Below are positions 57 through 7,774 of a stretch of 8,364 nt of DNA, piece by piece; positions within the stretch are counted from its first letter, which is position 1; every line of letters begins with the position of its first letter. Under the pieces are notes generated by a model, which saw only the letters and a list, made by a program, of their open reading frames with translations, ran no database searches and was not told the origin of the DNA. The position numbers and the translations under genes were made by a program. This DNA comes from a virus (Duplodnaviria > Heunggongvirae > Uroviricota > Caudoviricetes), in IMG/VR virus record IMGVR_UViG_2778261360_000001, positions 1 to 8,364 of that record. One strand, given 5' to 3'.

Positions 57-1064
57 TCACAGATAAAATACTCTCCAGGAAACCCGGGGCGGTTCAGTTT
101 CCAGAAGCGCATCAGTTTCACGGATTGGTACACCACGGAATGAAGTCCACCACTCGCCTTCAGTCTCTTTTACGCTGATAGCCAGAGATGTTTTCTCCAG
201 AGATTGCAGATCAAGAGCCTGGCCTACAGTGCGGTTCATGTAGAACACCGGGCGACCCATGCCACGGTTTGGAATGCGATGCAGTGCTTTAACCATCAAC
301 TTCGCAATATTTGCGGCAGAGGAAGGTTCTGAAAGATTGCTGACATCGATGTTTGCAATGCGAACAACATAACGCCAGTCACGCAGAGCAAGTCCGTTGT
401 CCCATTTGTAATGGGTACGGTAGCCTTCGTACTTGCCGCCATTAACATCTTCCAGTGTCACCTGGCCTTTATCTTCCATCTGGATGCCAGCCTTCTGCCC
501 TTTCGGGAAGATGCCATGCACGGTGTTTTCGCCCCACACCACTAACCAGATTGAGGTGTTATCTGTACCCGTGCCACCAGCATCAATGATGTTCTGAGCA
601 TTACCCGCAGACAGGCTGGAATAGCGGGAGGACAGTCCCATAAACTGCTGAGGGTTAACGCTGGAATCACCATAAAACAACGTCTGCGCCATCTGCTGAT
701 TCATCGCTTCAATAAATGCGCGGTCTTCAGACAGGCGGAATTCGGCGGTATTACCGTTCAGATCAGCCAGTGACTTATCGACTTCAGCATAGGTTTCCAG
801 CATTCCAACGGAATCGGTGACCTGCACTGTGGTTGATTTGCTTGGCTGTACGCCATAGTTCAGCAAACGCCAGGTGGCTGAAGGTAAACCAGAACGAATG
901 GTGGTTCGGTGTCCGGTAGGAAGGTTCCCTTCGACAAAAGGCATATCCTGAAGGATCGGGTTAGTTTGACCGAGAAGCTCGATAATCTTATCGACTTTCC
1001 CGTTTGGATCGACGCGCTTACCCCAGTCAGCCAGCGTTAGCGCAGTTAAGCCTTTAACAGCCAT
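57..1064 (-). CDS. Major capsid (coat) protein, about 335 aa. The start is probably the second ATG at 1064; the longest ORF starts at 1070.
   Basis: Long intact minus-strand ORF directly downstream of the scaffold-like gene, in the canonical portal-scaffold-capsid order. The SD-like AGAGGAA at 1071-1077 gives about 7 nt spacing to the ATG at 1064 but only 0-2 nt to the ATG at 1070. Size (about 37 kDa) fits a coat protein. Family not confirmed by search. Confidence 0.7.
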   Translation of the reverse strand: MAVKGLTALTLADWGKRVDPNGKVDKIIELLGQTNPILQDMPFVEGNLPTGHRTTIRSGLPSATWRLLNYGVQPSKSTTVQVTDSVGMLETYAEVDKSLADLNGNTAEFRLSEDRAFIEAMNQQMAQTLFYGDSSVNPQQFMGLSSRYSSLSAGNAQNIIDAGGTGTDNTSIWLVVWGENTVHGIFPKGQKAGIQMEDKGQVTLEDVNGGKYEGYRTHYKWDNGLALRDWRYVVRIANIDVSNLSEPSSAANIAKLMVKALHRIPNRGMGRPVFYMNRTVGQALDLQSLEKTSLAISVKETEGEWWTSFRGVPIRETDALLETEPPRVSWRVFYL

Positions 1065-1078
1065 TGTCATTTCCTCTC

Positions 1079-1774
1079 TTATTTGCCATAGAGCACTTCG
1101 GCCGCACTACGCTGGCCTTCATTACCACCGGTGACCATGCCATCTTCAGACATCGCCTTTCCGATTTTCACGAACGTTTTGACCAGATCAGGGTGATTAC
1201 CCAGCCCGGTGGTGTTCAGATATTCTTTGAGCTCAGGTGTCCCGAACTGGTCAAGCGCACGCTGTGCGGCGCTAAGGTTAGAAATCAACTTGTCGCCACC
1301 GATTTCTTTGTCAGCTTTTACATCCGCAGCCCACTGCTCGGTTGTTTTCTGCCAGGCTTCTGCCTGGCGCTGCTGAACACCTGCCAGAATCTTCGGATAA
1401 GCATCAACCAGCTTTTGCGCTTGCTCGTTGGTCAGGTTAAGTTCTCGCGCCACCGGCTCGAATTCCTTCAACGCTTCTGTATCCAGCTCTACGCCTTCGG
1501 CAGCCTGAAACTCGTACTTCTCAGGCGCACCCTCTGGTTTATTGCCGTCCTTTTTTTCATCCTGCTTATCGTTTTCAGGCTTTTTGTCATCAGCAGGTTT
1601 ATCGCCATCAGCAACAGGTTGTGGCTTATCACCTTCCTGTTGTGATGGATCACCAACTGGAGCAGGGTTATCACCTGCAGGCGCTGACGGTTCTGACGCA
1701 GCCGGAGCTGCTCCACCATCGACTGGTTGCTCATTGCAAAGACGGCGATACAGCAAACGCTCAAATAAATTCAT
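1079..1774 (-). CDS. Putative scaffolding protein, about 231 aa from the ATG at 1774. The listed ORF begins at a GTG at 1780 that overlaps the upstream stop.
   Basis: Acidic, Lys/Glu/Pro-rich low-complexity N-terminal half and a helical-looking C-terminal half, sitting between portal and capsid. AGGAG lies 5 nt upstream of the ATG at 1774 (minus-strand sequence CAGGAGTGATCATG). Confidence 0.6.
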   Translation of the reverse strand: MNLFERLLYRRLCNEQPVDGGAAPAASEPSAPAGDNPAPVGDPSQQEGDKPQPVADGDKPADDKKPENDKQDEKKDGNKPEGAPEKYEFQAAEGVELDTEALKEFEPVARELNLTNEQAQKLVDAYPKILAGVQQRQAEAWQKTTEQWAADVKADKEIGGDKLISNLSAAQRALDQFGTPELKEYLNTTGLGNHPDLVKTFVKIGKAMSEDGMVTGGNEGQRSAAEVLYGK

Positions 1775-1776
1775 GA

Positions 1777-2073
1777 TCACTCCTGTTCACTGGCCTCTTT
1801 GGCCATCTTCAAATACTGTTCAGGGCAATGCGCCATAACGCGCTGAAACAGTTCCAGCGCCAGATTGCGTTGCCCCTCATTAAATGCCATTGCCATAGCG
1901 TCCATCGGTGAGATAGCGGAAAACACACGGCCTTTCTCCAGCTCCGACCAGACAACGCGACGCCCCTGTTCACTGCTCATGACAAAGCGAATGTCATCAA
2001 TTTCACGCTGCGCCATGTCACGTTGCTTACGGGCGTTTTCTTCTTTCAGTTGATCGTCTTCGTAATCTGTCAT
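1777..2073 (-). CDS. Hypothetical head-assembly-associated protein, 98 aa
   Basis: ATG start overlaps the portal stop (ATGA) and its TGA stop overlaps the scaffold start region, so it is translationally coupled within the operon. No recognisable motif. Confidence 0.55.
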   Translation of the reverse strand: MTDYEDDQLKEENARKQRDMAQREIDDIRFVMSSEQGRRVVWSELEKGRVFSAISPMDAMAMAFNEGQRNLALELFQRVMAHCPEQYLKMAKEASEQE

Positions 2074-3503
2074 TGTGATTGCCCACCCTGACCACTAACT
2101 GCATTCGCCATAGCTGACAAAACACTCGGATCCGAAGTTTTAGCTTCGCTTAGCGTCTTGGCACCCTGTGCCGCCGCCATCCCCATCGCCATCATTTGTT
2201 GCTGCTGTTGCTGCTGTGCCCGTTGCTGGCGAGCCTGCTCAACCTGTTCCTGCGGAACAATGACGGTTGGAGACACTCCGGACATATCAGCGAATGCATC
2301 GATCGCCTGATCAACGTTGAGTTTGTCGAGAGCTTCTGGTTTCGCTTGCGCAAGTTGACCAATGAAGTTAACCGTGGACGCCAGACTGGACAGGCCGATA
2401 GACTTCTGAGCCTGAGCCATGACGGAAATGTATTCGACCTTCAGGGGCATGCCTTCCATCGCGTCAGGCGGTGGCGGCAACATGTTTTTACGCACCATCA
2501 TCGAGAAAGCGCGGTCAATGAGAGGATTAAGACATTCGTCGTTCAGACGCTCCAGAACCGGCCCCAACATCAGAAGTTTTTCTTCTTTCATTTCGATCAC
2601 CGCTTCAACAGGCATCGAGCGGGTATTGATGTTCTGCAACATCATGAACAGATCGACAAAGTAGGCGCTGTTAATGATTTGCCGAGTGTCCTGAATGTCT
2701 GCTACCAGATCTGCTGTACTGGGGTTAACCAGATAAGCAGGCCTGAAGCCATCCTGACCAGTAATCTGATCGATATACGTGATGTCGCCAGGAAGAAGGG
2801 AGGTGCGCTGATTCTTGAGGGAAGTCGGAGCAACCATCGGCGGATTGGTGGCTTTATCAATCAACTGCGACTTGCGCTTCTGGAGAAGCTGCAATGCCTT
2901 AACAGGTCCAAGCGCCAGCATACCCGGGCATGATGATCCATAAACATCTTCGCCGTTAACTTCCCAGCGCGGAGCCATAATTGGAAACTCATCGAATCCT
3001 GACTCACGCAACAACTTGTCGTTATCGCCACCAACCTCGTAATAAACCGATTTGAATGGCTTGTTCTTGCTATCCAGCTTCGATGTATCGCGGTCAATGT
3101 TCGGGTAAACCGAATGCATCACTTCAATCCACTTCTCGTAGGTACCTCTTTCCCACATGCTTTTTACGGATTCGCTGACGTTATTTAGCCCGAACTCCTG
3201 AACAAGCTGACGAACAGTCATAGAGAACTTGCGAAAACAGGTGTCCACACTGCCACGAGGTGAGTTAGCCAGGTAGTAACTGCCTATCGGGAATGGCATT
3301 GTGCGAATGATGTCCTCGTCATCCTCCAGTACCGCCATTGCACCGGTGCTGTATGTGCCGAGGCTTCCGTATAACTGCGGCAGCGACTGATAGAGATTCG
3401 ACTTATTGAACATATCGTTCATGCGGTTCTGCACCGCCTCAAGCCACAACTTAACAGGGCCATAATCCATCATTTCAGGATCTGGCGTAGCCAGCGAAAC
3501 CAC
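2070..3503 (-). CDS. Portal protein, C-terminal segment (frame B) of a frameshifted portal gene. The ORF-finder start is an internal GTG with no SD.
   Basis: 477-codon ORF immediately downstream of terminase and upstream of scaffold and capsid. Its reading frame is open upstream of the nominal GTG and overlaps the end of ORF 3470-3748 in another frame. Contains a poly-Gln tract near the C-terminus. Confidence 0.7.
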   Translation of the reverse strand: MVSLATPDPEMMDYGPVKLWLEAVQNRMNDMFNKSNLYQSLPQLYGSLGTYSTGAMAVLEDDEDIIRTMPFPIGSYYLANSPRGSVDTCFRKFSMTVRQLVQEFGLNNVSESVKSMWERGTYEKWIEVMHSVYPNIDRDTSKLDSKNKPFKSVYYEVGGDNDKLLRESGFDEFPIMAPRWEVNGEDVYGSSCPGMLALGPVKALQLLQKRKSQLIDKATNPPMVAPTSLKNQRTSLLPGDITYIDQITGQDGFRPAYLVNPSTADLVADIQDTRQIINSAYFVDLFMMLQNINTRSMPVEAVIEMKEEKLLMLGPVLERLNDECLNPLIDRAFSMMVRKNMLPPPPDAMEGMPLKVEYISVMAQAQKSIGLSSLASTVNFIGQLAQAKPEALDKLNVDQAIDAFADMSGVSPTVIVPQEQVEQARQQRAQQQQQQQMMAMGMAAAQGAKTLSEAKTSDPSVLSAMANAVSGQGGQSQ

Positions 3504-3748
3504 GGACGCGCGGGGCTTGTGATGCCTGACATCATGCCGCTGGCGAGAGTGCGCGCCGCCATAGTCCCGGTCGAATCAATAATGCGTGTATTGCGTCGAT
3601 CGTTACGGTTGACCTCAGAAGTCAGAAAGCGGGAACCACGCGGGTTGATGTAATCACTCAACTCGCGCCAGTGCGGCTCGAACGACTGACGCTCGCTTTC
3701 AAGTTGTGCGAACTGTTTGTTCAATCGCTCTTTAGTTGTTTCCGCCAT
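3470..3748 (-). CDS. Portal protein, N-terminal segment (frame A); probable 5' part of the same portal gene, interrupted by a frameshift near 3501-3515
   Basis: ATG at 3748 is preceded by GGAG with 8-nt spacing (CGGAGTCATTGAAATG on the minus strand). The ORF ends inside the open upstream frame of the 477-codon ORF. The two pieces together would give a portal of about 560 aa. Confidence 0.6.
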   Translation of the reverse strand: MAETTKERLNKQFAQLESERQSFEPHWRELSDYINPRGSRFLTSEVNRNDRRNTRIIDSTGTMAARTLASGMMSGITSPARPWFRWLRQILK

Positions 3749-3762
3749 TTCAATGACTCCGG

Positions 3763-3969
3763 TTACTGACCAAGCAGCGTTTTACCGCTGGTATTAGCGG
3801 TTGATGTGTCGCCCTGAGAACCGGTAAGCAGCGTAGAACTACGACCAGCAGCAGCGCGACGGCGACGTGTTTCTTCGTCGCGGGCATCAACAACGGCGGC
3901 ATCCTGCTCCTGTGGTGCTGCCTGAACTTCTGGTGTTGCAGGCACTGATGGTGAGCTACCCATGCACAT
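3763..3969 (-). CDS. Small hypothetical protein, 68 aa, Ala/Pro/Gln/Arg-rich and low complexity
   Basis: Its ATG is preceded by exactly the same 12-nt initiation cassette (CGGAGTCATTGA, then 1 nt, then ATG) as the portal N-terminal ORF. Position corresponds to the small gene often found between terminase and portal. Confidence 0.4.
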   Translation of the reverse strand: MCMGSSPSVPATPEVQAAPQEQDAAVVDARDEETRRRRAAAGRSSTLLTGSQGDTSTANTSGKTLLGQ

Positions 3970-4037
3970 ATCAATGACTCCGTACGCAATTAAATTATTA
4001 CCAATTTAACCACATATGATTTATTTATCGTAGATAG

Positions 4038-4066
4038 TTGACATTTAACGCACGAATCATTACCTT
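4038..4066 (+). promoter_or_regulatory. Candidate sigma70-type promoter: TTGACA (4038-4043), 17-bp spacer, TACCTT (4061-4066)
   Basis: Perfect -35 hexamer with a 17-bp spacer and a weak -10 (T1, A2, T6 conserved), in an AT-rich intergenic stretch upstream of the plus-strand leader and tRNA. Confidence 0.3.
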
Positions 4067-4396
4067 TCAGGTAAGCAAAGAGTTCATTCCGGTTATTAAC
4101 CTGACTGGCTTGTCGTTAAATTGAACAGGTGGAGTGAGCTTTTATTTTGAGCAGTACGGCGTATGGCACATGCGCCGATAGCGGTCTGGATACGTTTAAG
4201 GGGCACCCTCCCTTGCTCGAGCAAACGAACCAGGTAGCCGGAATGTGCAAGTCGAGCGGTTTTATTCCGCGCACGGGGATTCACCATCCCGGCGATTCGG
4301 TGTGACGCCTCGGAAGAGACGAGGGTACAACGATGAGAGCATTTATGGAGCCGCGACAAAGTGTGGCGCCTTAACAGGCTAAGTGCTCTCAGCGTT

Positions 4397-4473
4397 GTGG
4401 CATTAGCTCAGTTGGACAGAGCAACCGCCTTCTAAGCGGTTGGTCGCAGGTTCGAATCCTGCATGCCACGCCA
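4397..4473 (+). tRNA. tRNA-Arg, anticodon TCT (reads AGA), 77 nt with encoded CCA
   Basis: Hand-folded cloverleaf: 7-bp acceptor stem (GTGGCAT/ATGCCAC, all Watson-Crick), D-arm GCTC/GAGC with A20, anticodon stem ACCGC/GCGGT, loop CTTCTAA (U33, anticodon TCT, A37), T-arm GCAGG-TTCGAAT-CCTGC, discriminator G, CCA. Resembles host argU but has different acceptor and anticodon stems. Confidence 0.9.
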
Positions 4474-4516
4474 GAATCACGCCTAAGGACCGTGATGCCA
4501 GAAGTTCCAGGGGCTT

Positions 4517-4558
4517 GGCGGTGATGGTTTCCCTTGAAGGACTATCACCGCCCTTTTT
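4517..4558 (+). terminator. Putative intrinsic terminator downstream of the tRNA
   Basis: 9-bp stem GGCGGTGAT (4517-4525) pairing with ATCACCGCC (4544-4552), then C and TTTTT (4554-4558). The loop is large (18 nt). Confidence 0.45.
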
Positions 4559-4636
4559 ACAGCAGGACGCCATTGCGATGACTTCATGCTGTAAACCCGT
4601 ACAGCCACGGAAGGCATAACTCATTGCTTCCAGTTC

Positions 4637-4660
4637 GCCCGGTTCGCCGGGCATTTTTTT
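4637..4660 (+). terminator. Intrinsic terminator or attenuator immediately upstream of the RBS of the 123-aa gene
   Basis: 6-bp GC stem GCCCGG (4637-4642) pairing with CCGGGC (4647-4652) around a TTCG tetraloop, followed by A and TTTTTTT (4654-4660). The T-run runs straight into AAGGTGAGATT-ATG. Confidence 0.6.
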
Positions 4661-4671
4661 AAGGTGAGATT

Positions 4672-5043
4672 ATGAACGACCAGCAAATCGAAAAAGAAAT
4701 CGTTGAGAAAGGCAAAACTGCTCCGCGCGTTACGCCAGACCATATCGGAAGCATTATTGCTCAGGAGGCATATTTCACAGCAGAGGATGGTGCCTTTGGC
4801 AAAGCCATAAAAGCGAAACATACTGGCGGAGAGGTAAACTACCAGCCGCACGAATCACTTTCTCTGCTGACGTTCTGCGTCCTGGTGCTGCGCAACGGCT
4901 TCACCGTCACCGGAGAGAGTTCCTGTGCAAGCCCGGAAAACTTTGATGCAGAAATTGGTCGGAAGATTGCCCGACAGAATGCTGTAAACAAAATCTGGAT
5001 GCTTGAAGGTTACTTGCTGAAGCAGAAGTTAAGCGAGCAATAA
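4672..5043 (+). CDS. Conserved phage protein of unknown function, 123 aa; tentatively resembles the phage Gp49 (N4 gp49 / Sf6 gp66) family
   Basis: Only convincing plus-strand ORF. AAGGTGA SD lies 4-5 nt before the ATG, and it is flanked by terminators on both sides. Family assignment is from memory of the motif and is not verified. Confidence 0.7.
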   Translation: MNDQQIEKEIVEKGKTAPRVTPDHIGSIIAQEAYFTAEDGAFGKAIKAKHTGGEVNYQPHESLSLLTFCVLVLRNGFTVTGESSCASPENFDAEIGRKIARQNAVNKIWMLEGYLLKQKLSEQ

Positions 5044-5046
5044 CAC

Positions 5047-5060
5047 CGTGACATGTCACA
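5047..5060. repeat. 14-bp sequence CGTGACATGTCACA with a 12-bp perfect palindrome core (GTGACATGTCAC), copy 1
   Basis: Identical 14-mer also at 7312-7325. Lies just after the stop of the 123-aa gene and in the 3' flank of terminase large. Confidence 0.8.
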
Positions 5061-5063
5061 AAC

Positions 5064-5090
5064 AGCCAGCCTATGAGCTGGCTTTGTTTT
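5064..5090. terminator. Bidirectional intrinsic terminator between the convergent 123-aa gene and terminase large subunit
   Basis: 7-bp stem AGCCAGC (5064-5070) pairing with GCTGGCT (5077-5083), 6-nt loop, TTGTTTT on the plus side; AAAACAAA precedes the hairpin on the minus-strand transcript and a GTTTGTG tract follows it. Confidence 0.6.
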
Positions 5091-5133
5091 ATCCTCACCA
5101 GAGGATATCAACGACATTATCCCCACCAGAGGA

Positions 5134-6609
5134 TTAAGCATAGGGATCGTAATCTGTGATGGCCTTGCCTTGCTGGTTCTGCTGCCCGGGAATTCGCAGA
5201 CGCTTCGACACAGGGAACGCAAACGTCAGCAGTAGCGCATCGCCTTTACCAGGAGAACGCCCAAGCCGCTCTTTGATATCTTCCTTCGGTTCGATAACGA
5301 TTTTACCGTCCACTCGAACTTTGTACTCTGCCGCCGACAGGTCGTCCGCTGTTTCCTGGTCATCCAGCATGCCGCCGAGCCTCAGCCATGTCTTGCATGC
5401 ATTGAACATCTCCCCACGCTTGTTAAGCATCTGCGGGTCAGTGGACGCACCGCCGAACGGAACAAGTTGCCATGTACGACCCCAGCCGTCACCGATTGAC
5501 TTCAGACCGGTACCGTAACCAAAGTCGATGAACACTGCGTCAGCCTGATACTGGTCTTCAAAGTCAGCGATACGCTTCGCCATAATCAGATCGTCGGTGG
5601 TCTTGTTACCAGTCCATAGCACCTTACTGTGCAGCCCCTGCCGCAGGTATATCACAGCGTCATCAACGCCGGAGTATGCCGGGTCAACGCCGATTATCAC
5701 CGGAGCATGTGCAACCTGCGCAGCGGTTACCACCCGTTTCATTGCCTCGTCAGTAAGGCCGGTAGGGATAAACTGCAATTCAGATGCATCCGGGAATATG
5801 CCGCGCACACGGATTTTAACGAAGTCGCTGTCTTCCCCGTAGTCATCAACCCATTTCTGCAACTGCTGTTTGTTAGTGCCTTCCACCGTCCGGCTGTCAA
5901 TCTGCGCAGTTTTCCAGCGGTGTTTATATTTGCGGAAACATTCGCGAAAACGCCCGGTGTTACGTGTAGGGTTTCCGAACGCCACCCAGATGATTTCGGT
6001 GTCTTCGTCCGTCAGCGCACCCTCTGCTACCTCCCACACCAGATCGGCAATGTTCGACGCTTCATCGAATACCACGATGATGCGTTTGCGCTCGTTGTGT
6101 AGTCCGGCGAATGCCTCAGTGTTGTGCTCAGACCAGGGGATTGCGTCAGCTCGCCACCGCTTGTCATGCCCAGGGTCATTGCTGTACATCGCGGTAGCAG
6201 TACAGGTAAACCAGTATTTCGTGATAGCAAGGTTCGACCACTTGATAATTTCCGGCCAGGTCTTCGTTCGTAGCTGGTTGTCGGTGTTGGCGGTCACCAC
6301 GACCTTACAATCCTCGCAAGTGGACATGCCCCAGTTGATCAGCATTGAGATGAATGCGGATTTACCAATACCGTGACCCGAAGCACGTGCCAGCATAAGC
6401 GGCTGATAGCGCGTCTCTGGATTCTGCAGGTGATCACGTATCTCTCGGAACGCATCAGCCTGCCACTTACGTGGACCGGTGGCATGTGCTAATTCAGTCC
6501 CCTCTTCCCCCCACGGGAACGCATAGAGGGCATAGCCAAGCGGATCGTGAGTGAACCCTGCAATATCCTCGATCAACTGCTCTTCAGGAGATAACGCTGT
6601 ATCTGTCAC
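5134..6609 (-). CDS. Terminase large subunit, 491 aa, GTG start overlapping the terminase small stop (GTGA)
   Basis: P-loop-like motif (ASGHGIGKS) in the N-terminal ATPase region, acidic-residue-rich C-terminal half consistent with a nuclease domain, size, and translational coupling to the upstream small-subunit gene. AGGA lies about 9 nt upstream of the GTG. Confidence 0.88.
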   Translation of the reverse strand: MTDTALSPEEQLIEDIAGFTHDPLGYALYAFPWGEEGTELAHATGPRKWQADAFREIRDHLQNPETRYQPLMLARASGHGIGKSAFISMLINWGMSTCEDCKVVVTANTDNQLRTKTWPEIIKWSNLAITKYWFTCTATAMYSNDPGHDKRWRADAIPWSEHNTEAFAGLHNERKRIIVVFDEASNIADLVWEVAEGALTDEDTEIIWVAFGNPTRNTGRFRECFRKYKHRWKTAQIDSRTVEGTNKQQLQKWVDDYGEDSDFVKIRVRGIFPDASELQFIPTGLTDEAMKRVVTAAQVAHAPVIIGVDPAYSGVDDAVIYLRQGLHSKVLWTGNKTTDDLIMAKRIADFEDQYQADAVFIDFGYGTGLKSIGDGWGRTWQLVPFGGASTDPQMLNKRGEMFNACKTWLRLGGMLDDQETADDLSAAEYKVRVDGKIVIEPKEDIKERLGRSPGKGDALLLTFAFPVSKRLRIPGQQNQQGKAITDYDPYA

Positions 6610-7202
6610 TGATTACCATCCTGACGTTCTTTGAGTCGCTTCCTGGCTGCTGCTATGCGATCAGCAATTGTCACATTCACATTAACATCCAGACGTTCTT
6701 TGAACGCGTTGACATCAACATGCTTACCAATCATCTCAAGGTTCTTCACCTTGTCAGGCCATTTAATTTTTTTGAGGATTGTCTCTATCGAATCCTCGTT
6801 CATGTTCATGATGGTCGATGACAGATCAAAGCCACTAAGCGTAGTGCGCCAGATTTTCGGCCACTCACGGATTGGTTTAAGGCTCCCATCGTCGTTGAGG
6901 ATGTCGATCACGTCCATCTGGTCGATCTCCACCAGGCGCATGAGAACGTAATCAGCACTGACGCGCATTCGTTTGTTGCGCTCCTCCATCAACTCGGCAA
7001 TCCGTTTTTGAATGCGTTCATCGCGCATCATGACACTGGCTTTAACTGCCGCTGTATTTGGGGAGAATCCTGCGTTAATCGCTGCCTGAGTCTGGTTTTC
7101 AGGCGTTTTGATGTATGACTGGCAATAAGCCTCCTGCATTGCTGTTAGTGGCTTAAATTGCGTTGATTTGCGTTTATAGGTTTTATGTTCAGCAGGCATC
7201 AT
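6606..7202 (-). CDS. Terminase small subunit, about 198 aa. Start is at the ATG-ATG pair at 7202/7199; the ORF-finder extension to 7280 uses a TTG and runs through a terminator hairpin.
   Basis: N-terminal region (KPLTAMQEAYCQSYIKTPENQTQAAINAGFSPNTAAVKA...) matches the helix-turn-helix N-terminus typical of phage small terminase subunits. Lies immediately upstream of, and overlaps, the terminase large gene. Confidence 0.8.
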   Translation of the reverse strand: MMPAEHKTYKRKSTQFKPLTAMQEAYCQSYIKTPENQTQAAINAGFSPNTAAVKASVMMRDERIQKRIAELMEERNKRMRVSADYVLMRLVEIDQMDVIDILNDDGSLKPIREWPKIWRTTLSGFDLSSTIMNMNEDSIETILKKIKWPDKVKNLEMIGKHVDVNAFKERLDVNVNVTIADRIAAARKRLKERQDGNQ

Positions 7203-7209
7203 AACCACC

Positions 7210-7238
7210 GTGGTAATAGTTACCGTTGTGGTAATAGT
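7210..7238. repeat. Two exact 11-bp direct repeats, GTGGTAATAGT at 7210-7220 and 7228-7238, each followed by (T)ACC, directly upstream of the terminase small start
   Basis: Read directly from the sequence; 18-bp periodicity. On the minus strand the unit is ACTATTACCAC, repeated twice. Confidence 0.8.
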
Positions 7239-7243
7239 ACCAT

Positions 7244-7271
7244 GCAAAATAAAGCCGCCATAGTTGGCGGC
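7244..7271 (-). terminator. Intrinsic terminator on the minus strand between the small upstream genes and terminase small
   Basis: 7-bp stem GCCGCCA/TGGCGGC with a 4-nt loop (7254-7271), followed on the minus-strand transcript by UUUAUUUUG (plus-strand 7244-7253 is GCAAAATAAA). Confidence 0.6.
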
Positions 7272-7311
7272 AGTATTCAAAACCCATCAAATTCATCATG
7301 CATAATCTACT

Positions 7312-7325
7312 CGTGACATGTCACA
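7312..7325. repeat. 14-bp sequence CGTGACATGTCACA (12-bp perfect palindrome core), copy 2; overlaps the stop codon of the RHH-like ORF
   Basis: Identical to 5047-5060. Confidence 0.8.
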
Positions 7326-7659
7326 CTATTAATTTCGTTTCATGCCAGCCTTTGGTCACCCAGCATTGCGAGTCACCATTACACGGGCATGAATTCACAG
7401 GAACTCTCTCGCCGCACTTACCGCAACGTTTTCTGCTGATCGATTTTATACGCCCGCGCACGCGTGCATCATCCTGGCGGATCAGCAGCGCGATGTACTC
7501 GGCCATTTCATAGGGATCGCGACCAGGGCGCCGGGCGGCGCAGTTCCGCGCCAGCATTTCCTGCTCCTGCTTATCCAGCACCAGTTCAATTTTGCGCTCA
7601 CCGGCGGCGGACTGCCGAGCGCGCTGCGCGGCTTTGCGTTCTGCGGGGGATTTAGCCAC
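7321..7659 (-). CDS. Putative small DNA-binding protein, about 112 aa: ribbon-helix-helix-like N-terminus and Cys-rich (zinc-ribbon-like) C-terminus. GTG start at 7659 or 7668.
   Basis: An RKIELVLD strand-like segment followed by a helix fits the RHH pattern; C-terminal CGKCG...CPC...C cluster. No ATG until codon 38 of the longest ORF. GGAG lies 8 nt upstream of the GTG at 7659. The start region overlaps the end of the 40-aa peptide ORF. Confidence 0.5.
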   Translation of the reverse strand: MAKSPAERKAAQRARQSAAGERKIELVLDKQEQEMLARNCAARRPGRDPYEMAEYIALLIRQDDARVRGRIKSISRKRCGKCGERVPVNSCPCNGDSQCWVTKGWHETKLIV

Positions 7660-7774
7660 GAATCGCACTCCACGCCAGATTGATTAATGACTCCCAGGCA
7701 ATATAAACCCGGATACCAGCAGCCAGGCCGAAACCAATCACCATGGCATAAAGCAGAGCGTTGCACTTGTTCAT
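7652..7774 (-). CDS. Small hydrophobic membrane peptide, 40 aa (MNKCNALLYAMVIGFGLAAGIRVYIAWESLINLAWSAIRG); not in the supplied ORF track
   Basis: ATG at 7774 overlaps the TAA stop of the DUF551-like gene (TAATG) and is preceded by a strong SD (AGGAGGTGAAGTA-ATG). One predicted transmembrane segment. Hand-translated from the sequence. Confidence 0.5.
   Translation of the reverse strand: MNKCNALLYAMVIGFGLAAGIRVYIAWESLINLAWSAIRG

Follow-up and report, generated by a model that had tools for sequence, protein, structure and literature searches.

The Pfam family PF13876 comprises the Acb4 proteins, sponges for the cyclic-dinucleotide alarm signals of CBASS, a bacterial immune system (Chang et al., bioRxiv 10.1101/2024.12.30.630793). 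Acb4 of Bacillus phage SPO1 assembles into a tetrameric pinwheel with four 3'3'-cGAMP molecules bound at the protomer interfaces, and it rescues Acb-less T4 from a CBASS operon (10.1101/2024.12.30.630793). Its affinity for 3'3'-cGAMP is about 157 nM, and it also binds cUA-type signals. All eight further homologs that were purified bind 3'3'-cGAMP; those from phages of Gram-negative hosts bind 3'3'-c-di-AMP too, and no Acb4 protein of the study binds c-di-GMP (10.1101/2024.12.30.630793). AF3 tetramers were confident for all eight homologs modeled in the same study (10.1101/2024.12.30.630793).

N4 Acb4 is both necessary and sufficient for triggering the sponge-sensing system Panoptes in vivo (PMC12657230), as would be expected of a protein that sequesters cyclic nucleotides. 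An Acb4-Sequestin fusion from the Pseudomonas phage Ab09 has a Panoptes effect like that of N4 Acb4, and both proteins interfere with Panoptes 2'3'-c-di-AMP signaling. Acb2, Tad1, Tad2 and Sequestin share the sponge strategy, in which small homo-oligomers sequester immune nucleotide signals in interface pockets, but their folds are unrelated.

An Acb4 gene in an E. coli prophage

The window, by which we mean the whole stretch of 8,364 nucleotides analyzed here, is a degraded phiV10/epsilon15-like (Uetakevirus-type) E. coli prophage. Identity is about 97% to O157 typing phages 9 and 10, TL-2011b and phiV10, and 99.7% to the E. coli chromosome CP061272.1. One plus-strand ORF, preceded by its own Shine-Dalgarno sequence, encodes a protein of 123 aa (Table 1). 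A first-pass annotation, made from the letters of the window, had noted this Shine-Dalgarno and described the ORF as the only plus-strand gene, antisense to the structural operon. The neighboring credible protein genes do all lie on the minus strand, and the ORF is the sole credible protein gene on the plus strand, which also carries a tRNA-Arg gene.

The ORF is a genuine gene. Its product matches PF13876 from end to end of the profile (E=6e-34; score 116.8 bits, curated cut-off 27 bits) and PHROG 322 (E=4e-62), and 459 public contigs carry the identical protein, which RefSeq names 'Gp49 family protein'; because of these three results, a chance ORF is excluded. NCBIfam and PADLOC searches with the 123-aa protein gave no match.

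We conclude that the protein almost certainly belongs to the Acb4 (anti-CBASS 4) family. An HMM search had been suggested at first pass together with the guess of a Gp49-type family, and the guess was correct: the Pfam description of PF13876 (Phage_gp49_66) is 'N4 Gp49 / Sf6 gene 66'. The accompanying remark that no function has been assigned to it no longer holds. PF13876 has been known as the Acb4 sponge family since late 2024, and Table S3 of Chang et al. lists the exact 123-aa sequence (UniProt A0A3R1ALT5, from E. coli) together with the orthologs of N4, Sf6, epsilon15, phiV10 and O157 typing phages 9 and 10. The gene, acb4, is an already catalogued anti-defense gene.

Apart from the RefSeq name, most public records call the protein 'hypothetical' and none calls it Acb4; annotation of the family therefore lags or mislabels. 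Homologs in phage Huey (CDS0066; locus L019, 1501-1881) and phage P7869 (XRA42097; locus L020, 1314-1676) bear the label 'anti-CRISPR protein'. We rejected this label, the family and structure matches being solely to PF13876 / Acb4. It appears to stem from an annotation pipeline category.

Table 1. Features of the window and of the cargo slot in related loci
Feature	Position	Strand	Remarks
Major head protein (capsid)	57..1070	-	
Protease/scaffold	1079..1780	-	
Bbp19-like protein	1777..2073	-	
Portal	2070..3748	-	split into two ORFs
gp3-like	3763..3969	-	
tRNA-Arg (anticodon UCU)	4397-4473	+	ARAGORN; Rfam tRNA 73.3 bits; 198 nt upstream of acb4
Terminator-like hairpin, 14-bp stem, then CTTTTT	4517..4562 (hairpin 4517-4552)	+	3' of the tRNA; in TL-2011b too
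Conserved GC hairpin GCCCGG-TTCG-CCGGGC, then A and seven T	4637..4660 (stem-loop 4637-4652)	+	terminator-like; abuts the Shine-Dalgarno; left slot boundary
Shine-Dalgarno AAGGTGAG	4661-4668	+	direct sequence reading; ends 3 nt 5' of the acb4 ATG
Cargo slot	4661-5063	+ strand cargo	related loci: L001 7570-8040; L006 4766-6236; L007 5052-5762; L011 6532-7272
acb4 CDS (anti-CBASS 4 family, PF13876)	4672..5043	+	ATG start, 123 aa and stop codon
PF13876-matched codons 20-120	4729..5031	+	profile positions 1-82 of 82; b1-b3 strands and long C-terminal helix
Hypervariable insert, codons 38-62	4783..4857	+	between strands b1 and b2
Terminator-like hairpin AGCCAGC-CTATGA-GCTGGCT, then TTGTTTT	5064..5093 (hairpin 5064-5083)	+	20 nt past the stop codon; right slot boundary
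Large terminase	5134..6609	-	
Small terminase	6606..7280	-	
Regulator	7321..7668	-	

Fold and ligand pocket

PDB sequence searches returned one meaningful match, 9e4w, the structure of SPO1 Acb4: phmmer with the single sequence found it at E=0.0024, and a profile of 80 family members hit it alone (E=6e-7). We then compared structures, as the first-pass annotation had proposed. A single-chain AlphaFold2 model built on the 80-sequence alignment (mean pLDDT 95.1, pTM 0.84) adopts the Acb4 fold; in a Foldseek search of the PDB, the top 13 matches were all 9e4w chains with probability 1.0, and the next match had E>0.1. Like 9e4w, the predicted protomer combines three antiparallel beta-strands with N-terminal helices and a long C-terminal helical region. 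Acb2, Tad1, Tad2 and Sequestin are absent from the structural matches. A reading as a dsRBD protein was rejected, the searches having yielded neither a dsRBD profile match nor a dsRBD as best structural match.

The window protein is an Acb4 domain on its own. Fusion to Tad2 or Sequestin is common in the family, and many representatives, at 170-320 aa, have Acb4 at one of their ends (proteins P0185-P0187 and P0188-P0337). Three carry PF21825 (Sequestin) together with PF13876, in agreement with the published sponge-sponge fusions.

Relative to the founding member SPO1 Acb4, to which it is about 22-25% identical, the window protein is longer (123 aa vs 96 aa), differs in its N-terminal 22 residues and has a 25-residue hypervariable insert between b1 and b2. 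In the ungapped HMMER alignment, SPO1 residue n corresponds to window residue n+29, which let us follow the ligand contacts listed by Chang et al. (10.1101/2024.12.30.630793). The aromatic/hydrophobic core is kept (F48, F62 and I66 are F77, F91 and I95), as is R68 (R97), which lies in the EIGR motif. N63, a backbone contact in SPO1, aligns with D92. Changed positions include both residues that read the Watson-Crick edge of guanine in SPO1 (K36 to L65, E49 to T78), three phosphate contacts (Y57 to A86, T70 to I99, K81 to M110) and V56 (C85). With several SPO1 contacts unconserved, base and linkage specificity is not transferable from SPO1.

The core residues that are invariant in the family are all present. 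The window protein keeps the ENFDxEIGR motif, satisfies the core pattern NGF ... ENF(D)xEIG ... WxLEGYxL, and has each of the eight residues that are invariant in 80 Gram-negative and Gram-positive members (F77, N90, G96, W109, E112, G113, Y114 and L116). N4 Acb4, the 'N4 Gp49' namesake from an E. coli phage, is 44% identical to it over residues 19-123 and likewise lacks equivalents of K36 and E49. Because N4 Acb4 is nonetheless active, these two residues define the specificity of SPO1 Acb4 and not the family. The pocket differences probably reflect clade-specific ligand tuning rather than loss of function, and the c-di-AMP binding that homologs from Gram-negative hosts reportedly gained would fit this.

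Placement varies among these relatives. In the lytic phage N4, the gene lies in the anti-signaling hot spot known from N4-like phages. Compared with the window protein, N4 Acb4 has the shorter insert, and it ends in a Cys-rich tail that the window protein does not have. The closer homologs are phiV10 p03 (89% identical) and Sf6 gp66, the product of gene 66 (72% identical). In phiV10 and epsilon15 (ABK13674), the gene occupies the same place as in the window, on the opposite strand between the large terminase and gp3/portal genes, preceded by the same hairpin, T-run and Shine-Dalgarno. In Sf6, however, the homolog is part of the late operon and shares its strand with the lysis and packaging genes. 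Antisense placement is therefore no family trait; accessory position is.

A hypervariable insert and a mosaic allele

The acb4 coding sequence is uneven in its conservation. Across 107 close homologs, all at least 68% identical overall, mean pairwise identity was 0.22 over codons 38-62 and 0.86 over codons 63-123. The insert varies in length as well as sequence among these homologs, and in the 80-sequence alignment Gram-positive members lack it. It forms part of the b1-b2 connection and immediately precedes the position that corresponds to SPO1 K36; judging from alignment and topology only, it would adjoin the predicted ligand pocket.

The allele is also a mosaic. Its 5' 66 nt (codons 1-22) are of Sf6/lambdoid type, with 88% DNA identity to Sf6 and 67% to phiV10, while codons 23-123 are phiV10-like (95-97% DNA identity). 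The same mosaic allele, at ~96% identity, is found in the Stx2a-converting phage Stx2_112991 (locus L005, 3998-4371), which belongs to a different genus (Oslovirus). Only over the ORF (4669-5042) is that phage homologous to the window, which indicates that a gene-sized piece was exchanged horizontally between phages with unrelated backbones. Both the insert variability and the intragenic mosaicism may go beyond the published description of the family.

An exchangeable cargo slot

The phage backbone has a slot for exchangeable cargo between its large terminase gene and the gp3/portal genes, and acb4 occupies it. Identity of the window to TL-2011b is 94-99% over 93..4660 and 5064..7658, but the match is interrupted at 4661..5063, where that phage encodes an unrelated 115-aa MSGDV-repeat protein, gp23 (PHROG 3163). 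Three other plus-strand ORFs fill the slot of Enterobacter phage Tyrion (gp54, gp53 and a DUF551 protein), and two small ORFs that of Klebsiella phage ST11-OXA245phi3.2. Epsilon15, E15 and phiV10 carry Acb4 there, and some E. coli prophages (loci L011 and L015) have an additional 246-aa ORF (PHROG 4780) after acb4. Related phages thus hold unrelated cargo at the same position, as expected of the accessory slot postulated at first pass. TL-2011b gp23, Tyrion gp54 and gp53, the two Klebsiella phage ORFs and the 246-aa ORF gave no informative Pfam, PHROG or PADLOC match. The other slot occupants are candidates, by position only, for accessory or anti-defense genes.

A natural question is whether the upstream tRNA-Arg belongs to the cargo, since co-occurrence of acb4 homologs with tRNA genes had been put forward as a check on the accessory context. 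The distribution among relatives identifies the tRNA as a feature of the backbone and not a partner of acb4. No tRNA lies within 3 kb in 38 of 60 close viral loci. A tRNA-Arg(UCU) is found about 200 bp upstream in 16, an Sf6-type Asn/Thr tRNA pair 2.5 kb upstream in five, and a tRNA-Met in one. TL-2011b has the tRNA-Arg and no acb4, epsilon15 has acb4 and no tRNA, and the tRNA is also missing from E15, Tyrion and the Klebsiella phage. We therefore rejected the idea that acb4 and the tRNA travel together. Rfam searches of the whole window at permissive thresholds found the tRNA alone.

Hairpins at the slot boundaries

Terminator-like hairpins bound the slot on both sides, and a third follows the tRNA (Table 1). 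The last of these is a stronger hairpin with a T-run. The left-boundary hairpin is kept in TL-2011b, Tyrion and phiV10, and in epsilon15 and E15 its stem is preserved through compensatory double substitutions (GCCCAC/GTGGGC). The AAGGTGA Shine-Dalgarno after the T-run is kept both in Acb4-carrying relatives and in Tyrion with its non-Acb4 cargo; TL-2011b diverges past the T-run, and its gp23 begins about 100 nt downstream. The right-boundary hairpin at 5064 is annotated as a terminator in phiV10, on the opposite strand.

Two conserved hairpins lie directly 5' of the cargo within 4609-4668, GGAAGGCA...TTGCTTCC followed by GCCCGG-TTCG-CCGGGC and T7. A terminator-like element immediately 5' of a Shine-Dalgarno is unusual. 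It could serve as an attenuator, an antitermination target or an mRNA-stabilizing 5' hairpin.

These elements modify the earlier picture of a separately regulated gene with its own terminators. One terminator-like hairpin (5064-5083 with its T-run) does lie downstream of acb4. The other two (4517-4552 and 4637-4652) are upstream, and because they fall between the tRNA and the Shine-Dalgarno they are not acb4 terminators. Separate regulation is plausible but was not borne out: built-in and relaxed scans found no sigma-70-like promoter between the tRNA and the acb4 ATG. The built-in scan reported one promoter-like site, within the ORF. The relaxed scan gave weak candidates only, TTGAAC-16-TATTTT at 4121, and by eye we noted a TTGACA at 4039 with a poor -10. 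With two terminator-like hairpins ahead of the gene and no recognizable promoter, acb4 may be expressed by read-through, antitermination or an unrecognized promoter.

Condition of the prophage

Two lesions indicate that the prophage is defective. Bases 1-92 of the window match not phage but a multicopy element of the IS3 family, present at 24,276 places in 4,032 E. coli genomes, and the phage relatives all align only from base 93 onward. With this IS end in place of its last codons, the major capsid gene reads as an ORF of 337 aa instead of 328 aa. In the portal gene, one G is missing after 3493 (3493/3494) relative to intact relatives, and the resulting frameshift splits a 559-aa gene into minus-strand ORFs 2070..3503 and 3470..3748. 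The portal gene is likewise uncalled in CP061272.1 (locus L012), the closest public genome. In this degraded host prophage, acb4 may no longer serve a viable phage.

Proposed function and alternatives

By analogy with characterized Acb4 proteins, the 123-aa protein is probably a sponge for CBASS cyclic dinucleotides that prevents CBASS effectors from being activated. This reading draws on PF13876 membership, the 9e4w fold, the conserved core motif, the accessory slot and the 44% identity to N4 Acb4. Homology and fold thus favor one half of the first-pass suggestion, an anti-defense factor; for the other half, lysogenic conversion, no evidence was found. The protein would assemble into a homotetramer, as expected from SPO1 Acb4 and the tested homologs, and pockets at its protomer interfaces would bind and sequester cyclic dinucleotides from host CBASS CD-NTases. 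Its predicted ligands are 3'3'-cGAMP and probably 3'3'-c-di-AMP, as in other homologs from Gram-negative hosts, and the housekeeping signal c-di-GMP would be spared. With its signal sequestered, the CBASS effector would stay inactive during infection or induction, and the phage could replicate.

The main rival keeps the Acb4-fold sponge but shifts its ligand preference away from cGAMP, toward c-di-AMP isomers, cUA or larger cyclic oligonucleotides, so that its main target would be a signaling system other than cGAMP-type CBASS. Replacement of both SPO1 guanine readers by L65 and T78 points this way, as do the c-di-AMP binding gained by homologs from Gram-negative-host phages, the disturbance of Panoptes 2'3'-c-di-AMP signaling by N4 Acb4 and the Ab09 fusion, and the hypervariable insert, which would abut the pocket. 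We nevertheless consider such a shift quite unlikely: every one of the eight purified homologs, those from Gram-negative-host phages included, still binds 3'3'-cGAMP, and the window protein conserves both the hydrophobic core of the pocket and the ENFDxEIGR motif. A different objection concerns the gene rather than the ligand. acb4 could be an inert passenger here, an intact ORF in a decaying prophage that is silent behind two terminators and has no present function. The ORF is intact, however, and the identical allele recurs on 459 contigs, mostly from prophages with intact portal genes. The hairpin and Shine-Dalgarno arrangement is moreover kept across viable phages (phiV10, epsilon15), which makes it a normal expression context. 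We therefore give little credence to this idea, even though an IS3-family end takes the place of the prophage beyond 92 and cuts the capsid gene short at its 3' end, the portal gene has its 1-nt deletion, and no promoter consensus was found upstream of acb4; it would in any case bear on current use and not on the activity of the protein. A lysogenic-conversion factor, or a dsRBD-type nucleic-acid binder acting on host or phage RNA, has essentially no support and is scarcely credible.

Returning to the cGAMP-type sponge that we favor, a joint reading of insert, mosaicism and slot can be offered as speculation that is considerably more likely wrong than right. The insert at codons 38-62 would be a diversifying module that retunes the set of cyclic nucleotides sequestered by enterobacterial Acb4 alleles or evades Panoptes/Panoptoo/PanDA guards, segment recombination would shuffle it between phage lineages, and the slot would be an anti-defense plug-in site, with the PHROG 3163, 4846 and 4780 occupants as anti-defense candidates.

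Distribution and further observations

The family is large. At E<=0.001 it forms 4,968 clusters at 50% identity, many of them fusions, and a 90%-identity collection holds at least 8,000 family candidates. Among 5,426 complete E. coli genomes, 223 contain at least 80% of the tRNA-acb4 cassette, and many of these 223 are O26- and O157-type strains. A prophage-borne Acb4 could alter the CBASS protection of strains that carry the cassette, and could alter whether guard systems such as Panoptes fire. In practical terms, the outcome is a corrected annotation, Acb4 in place of a protein of unknown function. Modest leads on sponge specificity and on further anti-defense genes come from the hypervariable insert and the exchangeable, hairpin-bounded slot.

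Other parts of the region merit brief description. An 83-aa minus-strand ORF (4403..4654) runs antisense to the tRNA-Arg, overlapping the whole tRNA and both hairpins. The phiV10 (p04) and TL-2011b (gp24) annotations list it as a hypothetical protein, and several assemblies call it too, but it is most likely spurious. Upstream of the tRNA, the non-coding plus-strand segment 4075-4396 had no Rfam match, and its predicted fold is more stable than those of shuffled controls (z = -2.85, with 0 of 100 shuffles as good). A tRNA-carrying segment of ~330 bp (4192-4522) is missing from epsilon15. The adjoining segment 4109-4191 is 81% conserved there, and nearby the epsilon15 record annotates an RNase III site, repressor sites and IHF sites.
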